Source of the DNA: Erysipelotrichaceae bacterium
GTDB taxonomy: Bacteria > Bacillota_I > Bacilli_A > Erysipelotrichales > Coprobacillaceae
Length of the DNA: 17,769 nucleotides
NCBI GenBank assembly: GCA_028698185.1
Contig: JAQVDW010000033.1
Span: forward strand, 1-17,769
Direction: 5' to 3'
Shown here in pieces: positions 4,316 through 10,287 of this stretch. Under the pieces are notes generated by a model that was not told the DNA's origin, did not search any database, and saw nothing but the letters and a program-made list of their open reading frames with translations. The position numbers and the translations under genes are program-made. The first letter of the stretch is position 1, and every line of letters begins with the position of its first letter.

Positions 4316-5896
4316 TTAATCTTGGTTGTTTGATATTTCAATATTAACCCGACGGTTGCGGATTTTCTTTTTGGAACAGTTTTTAATCAATTTTTGCACT
4401 ACAAAACTGTTTACATCTACATAAGTGTTTTTGCGGTTGATTTCAATTGAACCTATGTCGCTTTTGCGGATTCTTCCTTCATTGCATAGGAACCCGACAA
4501 TCGCACCCGGATTTATTTTATCCATTGTACCACAAGTCATGAAGATTCGAGTCATGTCACCGCTGTTGTTGTGTCCAACTTGTTCGATTGTTTCACGGGT
4601 ATAATTGTACCCTGGATTTGATTCATTGAGCATGTACAACAAAGCTGCCGCGAAGTCATCTCTGATGTTCGGGTCGATTTCATTGATCTGTGATTTGAAT
4701 TTCTTGTGTTTTCCGGCAAAAATTGCATCCTCGACGTCGCTGATTAACGAAAGCACTTTGTTTTCGTTGATTTGAGTCAAAGTAGGAACTTCAAGTTTTT
4801 CGATTTTTGAGTTGGTAGAACGTTCAATCTGACGTAAAAAACCTTTCTCTTTAGAAACGACGATAGTGACCGCCTTTCCTTCGCGATTGGCTCTTCCCGT
4901 ACGACCAATTCTATGTACGTAAGATTCGATTTCCTGTGGCAATTCGTAGTTGATTACGTGTGTAACGTCATCAACGTCGATTCCGCGGGCTGCAACATCT
5001 GTCGCAATCAGGAAATTGATTGTCTTGTCCTTGAATTTTCTCAAAGTGTTGCTGCGGTGGTTTTGAGTCAGGTCGCCATGCATAGCCTCAACTTTGTAGT
5101 TGGCTTTTTGCATTTTTTCGCAGACTTCATCTACCGATCTTTTTGTACGGCAGAAAATGATACCCGATTTCACTCCATCAAGATCGATACAACGGCATAA
5201 AGCCTCGAAACGATCCTTAGGGCTCACTTCATAGTAATATTGCTTTACCGTTGAAGCAGTACGTGTTTTCGACTCGATTTTTACATGATCGTAGTCGGTT
5301 TTCATGTAGTTTTGCGCGATTTTCTTAATTTCCGCAGGCATTGTCGCTGAGAACAAAACAGTCTGATGGTCCTCAGGGACTGTCTGCAGAATTGTTTCGA
5401 TATCTTCCACAAATCCCATGTTCAGCATTTCATCAGCTTCGTCCAATACGACGTAGCGAACTTCATTAAGTTTCAAAACCTTACGGCGCATCAAGTCCAT
5501 GATTCTTCCAGGAGTCCCGATTACGATATCAATACCCCTCTTGATGGTCTTGATCTGTCTTTCGATATCACTGCCACCATATACACAAGTGACTTTTGCA
5601 TTGTTATATTTTCCAATCCGACCAAACTCATCGAAGATTTGCATCGCAAGCTCGCGAGTCGGTGAAATGATAATTGCCTGAGGATTTTTTGAATTGTTAT
5701 TATGGATTAATGAGAGTATCCCACCACCAAAAGCCAAAGTTTTCCCAGTCCCTGTTTGTGCCTGTCCTATAATATCTTTACCTTGAATCACTAACGGGAT
5801 CGCCTCTTCTTGAATCTTTGACGGTGAAGTAAATCCCATATCTTTTATTGCATTTAAGACCTCTTCCGAGAGTCCTAGTTTACTAAAATTTTCCAT
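4316..5896 (-). CDS. DEAD-box ATP-dependent RNA helicase with a DbpA/DeaD-like C-terminal RNA-binding domain
   Basis: 526 aa with Q motif GFTSPSKIQ, motif I AQTGTGKT, Ia PTRELA, II DEAD, III SAT and VI HRIGRTGRA. The C-terminal about 75 aa (MTRIFMTCGTMDKINPGAIVGFL...) resembles the DbpA RNA-binding domain. SD GAAAGGA is present. Confidence 0.92.
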   Translation of the reverse strand: MENFSKLGLSEEVLNAIKDMGFTSPSKIQEEAIPLVIQGKDIIGQAQTGTGKTLAFGGGILSLIHNNNSKNPQAIIISPTRELAMQIFDEFGRIGKYNNAKVTCVYGGSDIERQIKTIKRGIDIVIGTPGRIMDLMRRKVLKLNEVRYVVLDEADEMLNMGFVEDIETILQTVPEDHQTVLFSATMPAEIKKIAQNYMKTDYDHVKIESKTRTASTVKQYYYEVSPKDRFEALCRCIDLDGVKSGIIFCRTKRSVDEVCEKMQKANYKVEAMHGDLTQNHRSNTLRKFKDKTINFLIATDVAARGIDVDDVTHVINYELPQEIESYVHRIGRTGRANREGKAVTIVVSKEKGFLRQIERSTNSKIEKLEVPTLTQINENKVLSLISDVEDAIFAGKHKKFKSQINEIDPNIRDDFAAALLYMLNESNPGYNYTRETIEQVGHNNSGDMTRIFMTCGTMDKINPGAIVGFLCNEGRIRKSDIGSIEINRKNTYVDVNSFVVQKLIKNCSKKKIRNRRVNIEISNNQD

Positions 5897-5982: not shown

Positions 5983-6006
5983 AAAAAAAAAGGACTCTCG
6001 TCCTTT
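5983..6006 (-). terminator. Rho-independent terminator ending the long asnS-containing transcription unit
   Basis: The minus strand reads AAAGGAC-GAGA-GTCCTTT followed by six further T. The stem overlaps the TAA stop at 6006-6008. Confidence 0.8.
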
Positions 6007-7379
6007 TACAAGCGGTTTCTTTTTGCGCCAATCAAGAAAGCTTCGATGTTCTTCTGGATTTCATCAATAACTCTCTGCCTTGTTTCAAATGGAGCCCATG
6101 CGATATGTGGTGTCAAAATCAGTTTGTTGCCGTCTTCGACTTCGAAAAGACAAGAATTTCCTGGCAGCGGCTCGTTTTCAAACACATCCAATGCCGCACC
6201 TGCAATCTCATCTTCATTCAGGGCCCTTACCAGGTCAGCCTCGTTGATGATCTTGCCCCGGCCGACATTGACAATGTAGGCGCTGTTTTTCATCTTTTTG
6301 AATGCCTGATAATCGAAAAGGTTTTCTGTAGACTCATTCAACGGTGCGTTGATAGAGATGAAATCACTTGTCGTCAGAGCCGTGGCAAAGTTAACCCTTT
6401 CGTAAGGTTGTTTAGAGTTCAACCCCGAGGTCGAATAGTATTGGACCTTCATCCCCAAAACGGTAGCGTACTTGGCCATTTCCTGACCGATTGCCCCCAT
6501 TCCGACAATAGTCAGAACCTTGTTGTCCAACTCATAAAAAGTGTTTGAAAAATGAGAGAATGAATTGAGGCTAGAATATTCCTTGCTTTTGACGAAATTG
6601 TCATAGTAAAGAAGATGGTTGTTCAAAGCCATCATCAAACTTAGACCATGACTGGCAACCGCCTTGGTCGAGTATCCTTTCACGTTGCAAGAGGCAATGC
6701 CCTTGTCTTCAAGGTAATCAAGATCAAGATTGTTGTATCCGGTCGCCGTTACACATATCAGCTTCAGCTGATCGAAATCCGCCAATGAGGTTTCATCCAT
6801 TATGACTTTGTTTGTGATGATTATGTCATGATCTTTGGCGACACCTTCTAGATTTACCAGGTTATGGTAATCGATAAAATCACCATAATCGTCAAACCGG
6901 CTCAATTCGATATCCTGGCCAATGCTGTTAGAATCAAGTATCCCAATCTTGAGCGGCTTCCAGTCAAAGGCGTTTTTCAACAGTGTTTCGTTGTCTTTGA
7001 CCAGCTGTCCTAGTCTGATTGCCTCATTGACATCAAGGTAAGGTGCTTCCTTCAAAATAGCAGTTGTTTTGCCCGAAGATGTCCGATACTCCAATGCGTT
7101 TTGCAGCATCAAGATACCCAGGGCCTGGTTAGTCGCTGATGCGTATTTTTCAAGATTCCCTTTCAATTCGAGCAGGAACCCAGGTTGACCATCTACAGCT
7201 TTTAGCAGCGCTTCTTCCAAGGTTTCGCTATGCAAAACCACCCTTTTGAATGTGTCATTGTAGATAAGAGGCAAGATATAATCGTACAGATCAATCTCAC
7301 AAGAACCATAACCCTTGGTAAAAGAGTAAAGTATGATCGCCCCCAATGACGAATCTTTCATCCCTTCAATTAAGCTCAT
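6006..7379 (-). CDS. Fusion protein: about 140 aa N-terminal helical domain of unknown function plus a complete HprA/glycerate-dehydrogenase-type D-2-hydroxyacid dehydrogenase
   Basis: 457 aa. Residues from about 143 to 457 match the D-isomer-specific 2-hydroxyacid dehydrogenase pattern: ATGYNNLDLDYLEDKGIASCNVKGYSTKAVASH, NAD-binding GMGAIG (293-298), NVGRG (R374), DVFENEP (E403) and TPHIAW (H425). Residues 1-142 are an extra module not present in canonical enzymes. The ATG is 1 nt after the upstream stop (TAA-A-ATG) and has no SD. Confidence 0.8.
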   Translation of the reverse strand: MSLIEGMKDSSLGAIILYSFTKGYGSCEIDLYDYILPLIYNDTFKRVVLHSETLEEALLKAVDGQPGFLLELKGNLEKYASATNQALGILMLQNALEYRTSSGKTTAILKEAPYLDVNEAIRLGQLVKDNETLLKNAFDWKPLKIGILDSNSIGQDIELSRFDDYGDFIDYHNLVNLEGVAKDHDIIITNKVIMDETSLADFDQLKLICVTATGYNNLDLDYLEDKGIASCNVKGYSTKAVASHGLSLMMALNNHLLYYDNFVKSKEYSSLNSFSHFSNTFYELDNKVLTIVGMGAIGQEMAKYATVLGMKVQYYSTSGLNSKQPYERVNFATALTTSDFISINAPLNESTENLFDYQAFKKMKNSAYIVNVGRGKIINEADLVRALNEDEIAGAALDVFENEPLPGNSCLFEVEDGNKLILTPHIAWAPFETRQRVIDEIQKNIEAFLIGAKRNRL

Positions 7380-7380
7380 T

Positions 7381-8844
7381 TTAAATTAACGTCACTTTGA
7401 GACGCTGTCCTCCTGTTTTTTTTACATCCTCATAAACGCTGATGCAATAACGGAATTTACGGTGTTTATGAGAATATTTCAATATATTGTAACTAAGATA
7501 ATGGCGTTTGTCTTCCTTGACGTAGCTTTGAGCCGACGATCCGGCTGAAACTACCGTCAGATTGCCATGGCGAATGCAGCTTGGCAGATGGCGGTGGCCA
7601 TGGAAAACATATTTGGCATCATATGATTTGAGCCAGTAAAGAAGCAAATCGGAATCGATCAGTGCTTTCGAGTTGTCAATGTAGCGGCCGATGAAAATGT
7701 TGTCAACCCATTTTTGTTTCAAAAACTCATCCCGACGGATTGGAAACAAGTGGTGGTGGAGCATCACGATCATGGTATAATCCCGCAAACCCTCTATTGC
7801 CTCTAGCTCCTCATCGATTTCCCGAAGCTGGATTTGCCCAACCGACCCTCTGGCGAAATTTCCTTCGACCATTGAATTGATCTTGACAATTATAATTTTT
7901 TCATTTTCAATAACACGAATGCTGTCACCAAGCAAATAGGCGACAATCTTTGTCTTCTGGGTCCTGAAAAGATTAAGTCCGTGAGTGATTATGTCATGGT
8001 TGCCCAACACAAAATCGACCTTGCCACCAAATCTTTTTTTCAATAGGTTCATGAAACTGGTGACCTGGTACATGTTGGTGACTGTCGGCGAATTCATCAG
8101 ATCCCCGGTAATCAGGAATTTTGTCTGATATGATGAATCTATTTTCTTGATTATCTGGTCGATTGACGAAAGCAACAACAGCTTGTGTTTTTCAGTAGCC
8201 TTGTTGTTCTTGAAATGAAGGTCGCTAAGGTGAAAGAAATATGAATCGGTATTTTCAAAACGGTAGTCGAAAACCGTATCATTGTCAATCATCTCAAACG
8301 CTTCTTCGATATGTTCCGGTTCCCTTATCTTGATAAAGCGGTACCGGTCGTCTTTGAAGACAAGTATTCCTGGCCATTTCTCTATATTCAATATCCCCTT
8401 GATTAGGGCGCTGTATGGCCTTTGGAAAAGCAGTTCGCTTTCAAAAAGAATCTTCCTGTTGGTGAAAGTCCTGATCTTGTCGCTTTGAAGCGACCGGACA
8501 TAATCCAGGTTGGAAAATATCTGGTTGACCTCATAATCCTCATCAAGACCAGAGAAAAAGACAACCTGGTACTTCCGGTTTTCGGAATATTTGAAAGCCT
8601 GGAGCTGATTAACCGCATTTTTGGAAAAGTGTCTTAAAGTGTCCTCTTCATTATTGTCGTTTAATATGTCCCGTTGAATGCCTTCGGTTATTTCATCAAC
8701 GATATCAAGATGGATGTCATTGAAGGTCAGCCATTCCTTGATGATAGTCCTTCTTGTTTCATCCATCAGGTAATCCAGGACAAAATAACGTGAATTGTTA
8801 AAGATAAGCTGATAATAGGCATTGATGACATCGTAATCATTCAT
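7381..8844 (-). CDS. Two-domain protein: uncharacterised N-terminal domain (about 1-200) plus a calcineurin-like metallophosphoesterase (about 202-470)
   Basis: 487 aa. All canonical MPE motifs occur in order: HLSDLHF (D208, H210), ITGDLMN (D248), LGNHD (281-284), LHHH (363-365) and HGHRH (415-419). I recognised no known motif in the N-terminal 200 aa. The start lies 12 nt after the asnS stop and has no SD. Confidence 0.8.
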   Translation of the reverse strand: MNDYDVINAYYQLIFNNSRYFVLDYLMDETRRTIIKEWLTFNDIHLDIVDEITEGIQRDILNDNNEEDTLRHFSKNAVNQLQAFKYSENRKYQVVFFSGLDEDYEVNQIFSNLDYVRSLQSDKIRTFTNRKILFESELLFQRPYSALIKGILNIEKWPGILVFKDDRYRFIKIREPEHIEEAFEMIDNDTVFDYRFENTDSYFFHLSDLHFKNNKATEKHKLLLLSSIDQIIKKIDSSYQTKFLITGDLMNSPTVTNMYQVTSFMNLLKKRFGGKVDFVLGNHDIITHGLNLFRTQKTKIVAYLLGDSIRVIENEKIIIVKINSMVEGNFARGSVGQIQLREIDEELEAIEGLRDYTMIVMLHHHLFPIRRDEFLKQKWVDNIFIGRYIDNSKALIDSDLLLYWLKSYDAKYVFHGHRHLPSCIRHGNLTVVSAGSSAQSYVKEDKRHYLSYNILKYSHKHRKFRYCISVYEDVKKTGGQRLKVTLI

Positions 8845-8856
8845 CGTTCTGGCCTG

Positions 8857-10251
8857 TTAGAACTTGAGATTACGAGGAGTTCTAGGGTATGCCACAACAT
8901 CGCGGATGTTAGACACGCCGGTCATGAACATCACCAGACGTTCAAAACCGATCCCGAAGCCGGCATGGTTGACCCCGCCAAAACGGCGCAGATCAAGGTA
9001 CCATTGCAGTGTTTCTTTATCAATGCCTTTTTCCTCCATCATTTGCTCAAGAACCTCATAGCGTTCTTCCCTTTGGGAACCTCCGACCAGCTCGCCGATT
9101 CCAGGAACAAGCAAGTCACATGCGGCAACCGTCTTGTTGTCGTCATTCAAGCGCATATAGAATGCCTTGATATCTTTTGGATAGTTGATGATGAAAATAG
9201 GCCCTTTGAACACCTGTTCGCATAAGTATTTTTCATGTTCGCTGGCCAAATCGATTCCCCATGAAACCGGGTTCTCGAATTTTACATTAGCCTCCTGGAG
9301 CAGGTCGATGGCATCGGTATAGTCAAGACGCTTGAATTCGCTGTTCAACACTGCTTTCAGGCGGGATACCAATGTCTTTTCCTTGTCGACAAAATCATTG
9401 AGGAATTCCATTTCCGCTGGGGCTTCCTCCAGAACATACTGGATGCAAAACTTGATACAGTCCTCGATGAGATCCATATCATCTTCAAGGTTCGCAAACG
9501 CGATTTCCGGCTCGATCATCCAGAATTCAGAAGCATGAGTCGATGTGTTTGAATTCTCAGCTCTGAAGGTTGGCCCAAATGTATACACATCGCGGAAGGC
9601 CATCGCAAATGACTCGACATGTAGCTGACCTGAAACTGTCAGTGAAGCGTGTTTCCCAAAGAAGTCTTTTTCATAGTTGTCATCACTTCGGGTAGTGACA
9701 GTGAATGTTTCCCCGGCTCCCTCAGCATCGTTACCTGTGATGATCGGAGTTTGGACATAGACAAAACCTTGCGATTGGAAAAACTCGTGGATAGCCATCG
9801 CCAGAACCGAACGGACTCTGAAGGTAGCCAGATATGTGTTGGCGCGTGGACGAAGATGAGGTATCTCGCGCAAATATTCCAAAGTATGGCGTTTCTTTTG
9901 CAAAGGGAAATCTTCGGCACATTTGCCTTCAATAACCAATTCCGTAACCTCAACTTCAAAAGGCTGTTTCCCTTCAGGGGTAAGTTTGAATTTACCAGTG
10001 ACCTTGATAGCCGAACCGGTAGTCAATTTTGCCGCATCTTCAAAATTATCAAGGGTTTCCTCCAAATAAATCAACTGGATGTTTTTAAAGTATGTTCCGT
10101 CATTCAAGGCGATAAAACCGATTTTTCCACTATTGCGGTTTGTTTTTACCCATCCCTCAAGCTCGATCATATCCAGACCTTCAAATTCTAATTCCTCGCC
10201 ATATAAAAACATTTCATATAGCTCTCTAACCGTTTTAAATTCAAACATCAT
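8857..10251 (-). CDS. asnS: Asparagine--tRNA ligase
   Basis: Class IIb aaRS with an N-terminal OB-fold anticodon-binding region ([22 protein letters not shown]). Motif 3 is [15 protein letters not shown] and the C-terminus is [11 protein letters not shown]. The track ORF begins at a TTG (10266), but AGGAG at 10260-10256 is followed by ATGATG at 10251/10248, so I place the start at 10251. Confidence 0.93.
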
Positions 10252-10287
10252 AACTCTCCTTTTCAAATGTATTTTTCCGCTGTTGGA

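Follow-up and report, generated by a model that had tools for sequence, protein, structure and literature searches.

An LmuC-like adaptor domain fused to a D-2-hydroxyacid dehydrogenase and encoded beside a Metis-like phosphoesterase at a core locus of Coprobacillaceae

In type II Lamassu, an anti-phage system encoded as lmuA-lmuC-lmuB (DdmABC in Vibrio cholerae), LmuC (DdmB) is a globular adaptor placed at the centre of an A1B2C1 complex, where it touches the C-terminal domain of LmuA and the coiled coils of LmuB, and it helps to keep monomeric LmuA inactive (PMC12663957). The V. cholerae LmuC is described as carrying the MC3 motif (10.1101/2025.06.23.660979). Other described systems consist of two genes: DS-9, composed of a metallophosphatase and a HAD protein, was validated by DefensePredictor (PMC13092281), and the same type of gene pair has been studied as Metis, with the proteins MisA and MisB (10.1101/2025.11.05.686725), and as PUA-Cal-HAD (10.64898/2026.01.15.699771); the Metis paper also mentions that a similarly composed operon had come out of a machine-learning screen (10.1101/2025.11.05.686725). 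MisA is reported to be an NAD+ diphosphatase that depletes NAD+ and is restrained by its partner enzyme MisB (10.1101/2025.11.05.686725), and the HAD protein binds the PUA-Cal hexamer (10.64898/2026.01.15.699771). Here we describe a gene pair related in part to both kinds of system, found on a stretch of 17,769 nucleotides (nt) from an Erysipelotrichaceae bacterium (contig JAQVDW010000033.1), which is referred to as the window. The first gene of the pair encodes a metallophosphoesterase, and the second is an open reading frame (ORF) in which an LmuC-like module of 142 residues precedes a D-2-hydroxyacid dehydrogenase.

Compared with type II Lamassu, the module belongs to the same family as LmuC and has the same predicted fold (template modelling, TM, scores of 0.62-0.77), at a size of about 140 residues versus 164-171 for the Lamassu chains, and, as with LmuC, its coding sequence lies immediately downstream of an enzyme gene in the effector position. 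LmuC is, however, a free-standing protein, whereas the module forms the N-terminus of a dehydrogenase. Lamassu has LmuB, an ATPase of the SMC (structural maintenance of chromosomes)/ABC (ATP-binding cassette) type whose coiled coils are the main partner of LmuC, while the window locus is without an ATPase; likewise, LmuA has a C-terminal domain (CTD), whereas the window phosphoesterase is without one and its non-catalytic domain is N-terminal. A species scan, in which each species was represented by one genome, returned 44 related loci, whose flanks were covered for a maximum of 10 kb, and at the level of these loci the identified neighbours were the housekeeping genes known from the window, and no ABC or SMC ATPase was found in the window or beside the pair; the sole ABC ATPase seen near the pair was that of an OpuA-type transporter inserted in one lineage. 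Lamassu is also mobile and patchy in its distribution, in contrast to the pair, which is inherited vertically at a core locus. The initial annotation of this DNA had drawn attention to the order phosphoesterase, middle-component-like module and dehydrogenase, the latter at the place of lmuB, and had suggested an ABC three-component (ABC-3C) system with one part exchanged. The gene order stands, but the system does not, given that neither an ATPase nor an LmuA or CTD was found. With neither an ATPase nor an effector that bears a CTD, and with a distribution unlike that of defence systems, the locus is not an ABC-3C or Lamassu system.

The likeness to Metis lies in the layout. Type I Metis and the window pair are both two-gene cassettes of overlapping genes (1 nt separates the two in the window itself; an overlap occurs in 29 of 42 species), in both the first protein has an N-terminal domain of ~190 residues followed by a Calcineurin-CE-type metallophosphoesterase, and in both the second protein is a Rossmann-type enzyme. 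The N-terminal domain is, however, PUA-like in Metis and helical plus thioredoxin-like in the window protein, and the second gene encodes a HAD phosphatase in Metis and an LmuC-like domain with a D-2-hydroxyacid dehydrogenase here; no HAD gene was found in the window. In the DS9_1 equivalog test the window phosphoesterase scored 68 bits against a cut-off of 420 bits. The window pair is chromosomal and belongs to the core genome, whereas a related Klebsiella pair is carried on a plasmid, beside restriction-endonuclease and Hachiman genes. As it has neither a PUA-like domain nor a HAD partner and scores far below the cut-off, the locus is not a Metis or DS-9 system.

The LmuC-like module and its dehydrogenase

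The fusion ORF (6006..7379, minus strand) encodes 457 amino acids (aa), and its N-terminus is exactly MSLIEGMKDSSLGAIILYSFTKGYGSCEIDLYDYILPLIYNDTFKRVVLHSETLEEAL, the peptide quoted in the initial annotation, according to which an extra module resembling ABC-3C middle components precedes a dehydrogenase that begins at about residue 143. Both parts of this description were borne out. The NCBIfam profile NF006263 (D-2-hydroxyacid dehydrogenase) aligned through its positions 2-308 of 311 with residues 144-450, and residues 1-142 (6954..7379, minus strand) matched the Pfam family MC3 (PF20131, ABC-3C middle component 3) with 27.8 bits and an E-value of 2e-6 (24.5 bits for the whole protein), above the curated gathering cut-off of 23.2 bits. 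All ten diverged relatives examined also matched MC3 (best E 4.2e-8), the PADLOC model of LmuC matched the window module (E 4e-5), and PF20131 is already present on the proteins of the relatives through automatic Pfam annotation, precomputed in a public collection. Residues L12, Y18, F20, Y24, Y32, L36 and P37 are invariant in the ten relatives, and G13 and A15 are nearly so; the residue pattern that had been pointed out by eye corresponds to this conserved core.

A Foldseek search with a predicted structure, which had been proposed together with the annotation, was performed for the module. The AlphaFold2 model, built from an alignment of ten relatives (predicted local distance difference test, pLDDT, 90.1; predicted TM score, pTM, 0.86), consists of six helices, a beta-hairpin (residues 96-109) and two further helices. 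The top three matches in the PDB were 9uxh_D (TM 0.71), 9ny5_C (TM 0.62) and 9hqu_D (TM 0.77), each with a probability of 1.00, all of them chains of 164-171 residues from three independent cryo-electron microscopy entries of Lamassu, which were taken to be LmuC from chain length and entry titles. All the other matches had TM scores of 0.38 or less, and were mostly winged-helix regulators. The sequence identity between the module and the Lamassu chains was 13-18%. The relationship with LmuC is remote, yet the curated Pfam profile, the PADLOC profile, which is independent of it, and the predicted fold concur, and on these profile matches and the predicted structure residues 1-142 are confirmed as a true homologue of the ABC-3C middle component MC3 and of Lamassu LmuC.

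A word-indexed homologue search with the module alone gave no match. When 1.84 billion representative proteins were searched exhaustively with phmmer, 22 matches were obtained, one of which was spurious (a repetitive protein of 1772 aa), and the remaining ones carried the same N-terminal module, as full-length dehydrogenase fusions of 457-463 aa, as contig-end fragments or as chimera-like proteins. Aside from a frameshift allele, described below, neither a free-standing close homologue nor another fusion partner was found in this search. In proteins P0008 and P0017 the module, or the module with a partial dehydrogenase, is joined to unrelated sequence (the tail of P0017 has a precomputed PF01551 match); they are most likely derived from chimeric metagenome contigs, and do not represent further architectures. 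The initial annotation had weighed its proposal against the case of a module occurring only as an N-terminal extension of dehydrogenases in metabolic operons. Half of this was borne out: every close homologue is indeed a dehydrogenase extension, but the partner gene is of a conflict-system type and not plainly metabolic.

The frameshift allele concerns a poly-A tract at the domain junction, which is A9 (tta aaa aaa aag) in an in-frame relative (L004:10372-10512) and A8 in L046:6380-6520 (also in L047-L049). The A8 allele splits the fusion into a free MC3 protein of 148 aa (P0023; 43 contigs, 77 index blocks) and a dehydrogenase ORF of 298 aa, and was seen on many independent contigs of one prevalent lineage. 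It may reflect a genuine allele, a tract prone to slippage or phase variation, or an assembly error that recurs.

Residues 143-457 and the stop codon (6006..6953, minus strand) make up the dehydrogenase, to which the module is joined with essentially no linker, as its last helix continues into the first strand of the enzyme. The NF006263 score was slightly below the PRK08410 equivalog cut-off (358.8 vs 389 bits), and the Pfam matches were 2-Hacid_dh_C (PF02826, E 2.5e-50) and 2-Hacid_dh (PF00389, E 1.3e-17). The GxGxxG motif (G293, G295, G298), R374, E403 and H425 are invariant in 43 orthologues; judged from its sequence, the domain is complete and its active site intact. The nearest solved structures were 2-hydroxyacid dehydrogenases and glyoxylate reductases, with CtBP chains also among the PDB relatives (E about 1e-28). 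Enzymes of the PRK08410, HprA or glyoxylate-hydroxypyruvate reductase type have both Pfam domains, GxGxxG and the Arg-Glu-His residues in common with the fusion protein, which differs from the HprA-type dehydrogenases by the additional 142-residue LmuC-like domain at its N-terminus.

An acidic residue after the dinucleotide-binding motif usually marks the NAD(H)-specific members of this dehydrogenase family. In the fusion protein GxGxxG is followed by an invariant YYSTSG (residues 314-319; 6423..6440, minus strand), without the usual acidic residue, which hints at the use of NADP(H) or of both cofactors.

The upstream phosphoesterase

The phosphoesterase comprises 487 aa, of which residues 201-487, with the stop codon (7381..8244, minus strand), form the Calcineurin-CE-type catalytic domain. 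Families of the Metallophos type were its sole Pfam matches at E up to 10 (Metallophos, E 8.4e-9), and its best NCBIfam match was DS9_1_antiphage (68.1 bits, E 6.5e-19), which was likewise the best NCBIfam match in 34 of 34 orthologues (best E 7e-22). The five metallophosphoesterase motifs show no variation within the Coprobacillaceae family. When the catalytic domain was compared by hhalign with the Metallophos domain of a Klebsiella plasmid protein, a probability of 98.3% was obtained (E 1.1e-14). As far as sequence comparison reaches, its nearest characterised relative is the MisA/DS-9A/PUA-Cal enzyme of Metis.

The best 120 of 213 matches of a profile search with the phosphoesterase were orthologues only. 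The nearest plasmid relative was the Klebsiella protein, which combines a PUA-like domain (Pfam Pua-like, E 1.3e-42) with Metallophos, and is followed by a HAD gene, with restriction-endonuclease and Hachiman genes alongside. On this IncFIA plasmid (L050; NZ_AP021931.1, 94171-104443) the gene for the PUA-like and Metallophos protein overlaps the HAD gene, as a Metis or PUA-Cal-HAD pair, and the pair has a restriction endonuclease gene to one side and a Hachiman system to the other, a typical defence island that contrasts with the core locus of the window.

The N-terminal 200 residues (8245..8844, minus strand) were modelled by AlphaFold2 with a pLDDT of 90.9, as a helical subdomain (residues 1-89) followed by a thioredoxin-like beta-alpha-beta-alpha-beta-beta-alpha subdomain (residues 92-187) without a CxxC motif. 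Foldseek matched the model with thioredoxins (TM normalised to the target 0.44-0.58, probability 0.8-0.99), and neither a PUA domain nor a Lamassu entry was among the 50 matches listed. This region gave no match to a Pfam family, Pua-like included, whether in the window protein (E up to 10) or in the 34 orthologues (E up to 1), and the phosphoesterase matched neither a PADLOC model of LmuA nor an ABC-3C CTD family. Two identities for the region were considered and rejected: a PUA-like domain, on the lack of a Pua-like match in the 34 orthologues and on the thioredoxin-like predicted fold, and an equivalent of the LmuA CTD, which had no support from Pfam, PADLOC or Foldseek. The region contains a conserved motif, DLSFxDPF...WPGxLIF, and is 16-31% identical between genera, compared with about 70% for AsnS. 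It is a candidate sensor or docking domain, and about 30 residues of its helical subdomain are missing from the phosphoesterases of three lineages (L038, L039 and L043).

Organization, distribution and descent of the gene pair

The minus strand of the window carries a run of genes formed by asnS (8857..10266), the metallophosphoesterase gene (7381..8844), the fusion ORF and a DEAD-box helicase gene (4316..5896); the other genes of the window encode a PfkB kinase, PPDK, acetate kinase, the TsaBDE proteins, RimI, Rex and S15, and those called beyond the pair are of a housekeeping kind or match no family. The phosphoesterase gene begins 12 nt after asnS, and at the junction of the pair (7377..7383, minus strand) the phosphoesterase stop codon (7381-7383) and the ATG of the fusion (7377-7379) are separated by 1 nt. 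The spacing of the two genes was -29 to +15 nt in the 42 species, with overlaps of 4-29 nt, and they are an obligate, translationally coupled pair. A terminator-like hairpin, detected by consensus scan only and composed of an 8-bp stem and a T-run, starts at the fusion stop codon (5988..6007, minus strand), and probably ends the transcription unit ahead of the DEAD-box helicase gene. Considering this hairpin and the 12-nt spacing, the pair may be co-transcribed with asnS in the Erysipelotrichaceae bacterium.

Nearly all of the 44 loci were from Coprobacillaceae and other Erysipelotrichales (one record is labelled Bacteroidaceae), with Thomasclavelia, Coprobacillus, Catenibacterium, Sharpea, Faecalibacillus, Longibaculum, Massilimicrobiota and Stoquefichus among the genera represented. 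A fusion ORF of 457-486 aa was present in 43 species, the identity of the module among relatives being 26-41% with an invariant core, and a phosphoesterase of ~485 aa preceded the fusion gene in every locus that extended upstream. The conserved gene order was tsaE-tsaB-rimI-tsaD-rex-asnS-phosphoesterase-fusion-cshA-ppdK, but downstream of the pair cshA and ppdK could be recognised at only about one locus in three. Pairwise distances of both genes tracked those of the neighbouring housekeeping genes (r 0.65-0.91), which fits vertical descent, and the pair is vertically inherited in Coprobacillaceae at one core locus (asnS-pair-cshA) that is not a defence island. No relatives were found in phage records, viral contigs or a viral structure library, and no defence genes were found near the pair in the window or at the insertions scanned. 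For the module, pairwise ratios of nonsynonymous to synonymous substitution rates (dN/dS) were 0.10-0.42, and those of the dehydrogenase domain were 0.09-0.28; the synonymous distances are high, so these values are rough, yet they are clearly below 1, and both parts of the protein are under purifying selection.

Four lineages have further genes that separate asnS from the pair, while the two genes of the pair remain together. These lineages are deeper-branching (L038, L039, L043 and L044) and have 2-6 kb of genes at this place: a LytR-Cps2A-Psr gene and a divergent XRE-type helix-turn-helix gene just upstream of the phosphoesterase in L039 and L043, and genes for GH4, NagB-like, DUF7832 and OpuA transporter proteins in L044 (2720-8254), whereas the gap in L038 is of 2.3 kb. 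A hidden SMC-like ATPase or defence gene was looked for in the insertions of L039, L043 and L044, and none was found among these genes. In one complete chromosome (L045; CP139560.1, Coprobacillaceae bacterium CR2/5/TPMF4) the phosphoesterase, fusion, tsaD, rimI and ackA genes are each split into several ORFs, a breakage that suggests a frameshift-rich assembly and not a specific loss of the pair.

A docking proposal and its alternatives

On balance, and with reservations, we lean towards a reading in which an exapted LmuC adaptor docks a Metis-like phosphoesterase onto a dehydrogenase, in a conserved two-gene cassette without an ATPase. The LmuC/MC3 domain would have been removed from its Lamassu context and fused, almost without a linker, to the first strand of the D-2-hydroxyacid dehydrogenase. 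By analogy with LmuC, which holds LmuA against the LmuB dimer, the module may dock the phosphoesterase onto the dehydrogenase, which belongs to a normally dimeric family, and a single complex of the two enzymes would result. Docking is proposed because an LmuC fold is rigidly joined to a usually dimeric enzyme and co-translated with an effector-type phosphoesterase. In such a complex the dehydrogenase, with its NAD(P)(H) or substrate state, could hold back the activity of the phosphoesterase on nucleotides or NAD(P), or be coupled to it. CtBP, whose regulatory action depends on NAD(H), provides a precedent for this dehydrogenase fold working by way of NAD(H) binding, and restraint or coupling is plausible because of this precedent and because MisA is reported to be held back by MisB. 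Docking, regulation and substrates are inferred, and so would be the assignment of an immune or a housekeeping role.

Several observations weigh against this proposal. The LmuB coiled coil, which is the best-documented partner of LmuC, is missing at the locus, so that the module could serve otherwise, e.g. in the oligomerisation of the dehydrogenase, and the phosphoesterase has no recognisable LmuA CTD for the adaptor, so that a surface used for docking would have to be a novel one. A mirror-tree test of the adaptor against the N-terminus of the phosphoesterase gave a partial correlation of -0.05, showing no specific co-evolution. With regard to the homology itself, the PADLOC LmuC model was reached by only 3 of the 10 relatives, the Foldseek E-values for the Lamassu chains were modest (5e-4 to 9e-3), and by sequence neither the module nor its family profile retrieved an LmuC, or anything else meaningful, from the PDB. 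Marginal values of this kind, together with the 27.8 bits for MC3 and the low identity to the Lamassu chains, would be expected if an unrelated helical domain resembled LmuC by chance and the MC3 match were a false positive; yet the Pfam match lies above the curated cut-off and recurs in 10 of 10 diverged relatives, a separate PADLOC LmuC model agrees, and Foldseek gave TM scores >0.6 over the whole domain for three Lamassu chains and none besides, which makes this the most improbable of the explanations considered. Scarcely more credible is a decayed Lamassu remnant, left when an operon was inserted upstream of a dehydrogenase gene, lmuB was deleted and an lmuC stub was fused by accident and without function. 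The gene order does mimic lmuA-lmuC-lmuB, and one orthologue (P0018) has a Met exactly at the start of a stand-alone dehydrogenase (RRMKIVVL), but the supposed stub has been kept in 43 species at 26-41% identity with its invariant core, its dN/dS is well below 1, it is confidently predicted as a complete LmuC-like domain, and the upstream enzyme retains all its catalytic motifs. A non-functional fusion remnant was rejected as the present state on conservation, dN/dS and the confident predicted fold, although a Lamassu-decay event may well be the origin of the fusion.

The remaining alternatives concern what the cassette does. That it is a housekeeping module of two enzymes of ordinary metabolism, in which, for example, removal of a phosphate precedes the redox conversion of a 2-hydroxy or 2-oxo acid, or nucleotides or NAD(P) are turned over, with the LmuC-like domain as an inherited structural or oligomerisation appendage that has no immune role, is a serious possibility, if short of an even chance. 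In no fewer than 40 species, from several genera, the pair keeps one core position, with asnS on one side and cshA/ppdK on the other, and in the window it starts 12 nt downstream of asnS. Its distances track those of housekeeping genes, it has no nearby defence genes and no relatives on phage or viral contigs, and the active sites of both enzymes are intact. Nevertheless, both non-dehydrogenase parts are closest to anti-phage systems (LmuC and the DS-9A or MisA-type phosphoesterase), the phosphoesterase N-terminus is fast-evolving in comparison with AsnS, and we know of no metabolic pathway that combines the phosphoesterase, LmuC-like and dehydrogenase families. More doubtful is a chromosomally fixed, Metis-like abortive-infection system, in which the phosphoesterase N-terminus would sense infection, the Calcineurin-CE domain would deplete NAD+ or (deoxy)nucleoside triphosphates, and the LmuC-dehydrogenase would replace the HAD protein as restraining or co-effector subunit. 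The layout is that of Metis and PUA-Cal-HAD, with an overlapping second gene for a Rossmann-type enzyme, the adaptor is derived from Lamassu, and precedents exist in the reported depletion of NAD+ by MisA under restraint by MisB (10.1101/2025.11.05.686725) and in the binding of the HAD protein to the PUA-Cal hexamer (10.64898/2026.01.15.699771). Against it stand the vertical, family-wide distribution at one housekeeping locus, which is neither patchy nor in defence islands, the DS9_1 score of 68 bits against the cut-off of 420, and the lack of a PUA-like domain and of a HAD gene. A housekeeping or domesticated role is weighted slightly above active defence; the structural description, that of an exapted LmuC adaptor within a conserved cassette of two enzymes, is the same for both roles. 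Unlikely, in our estimation, is a bolder version in which Lamassu and Metis parts form a chromosomally fixed immune or stress module, where a dimer of the NAD(P)-dependent dehydrogenase would replace the SMC-like sensor and scaffold, and effector release would be set by the redox, NAD(P) or 2-oxoacid state and not by DNA ends.

No description of the fusion architecture was found in the literature searched, the original ABC-3C paper being outside this scope. In the papers covered, LmuC is presented solely as the adaptor of Lamassu, between the LmuB coiled coils and the LmuA CTD. In the fusion protein, an LmuC domain has been kept without an SMC-like ATPase, joined to an ordinary dehydrogenase and paired with a Metis-type enzyme, which suggests that the LmuC fold is a portable docking module rather than an SMC-specific accessory, and the pair offers a simple two-protein system for asking which LmuC surface binds effectors. 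If its role is defensive, it would represent a new link between NAD(P) or redox sensing and a nucleotide- or NAD-degrading effector; if it is a housekeeping one, the domestication of defence components would be documented. Parts of immune systems have here become fixed in the core genome of a common gut family, which includes Thomasclavelia, Catenibacterium and Faecalibacillus.

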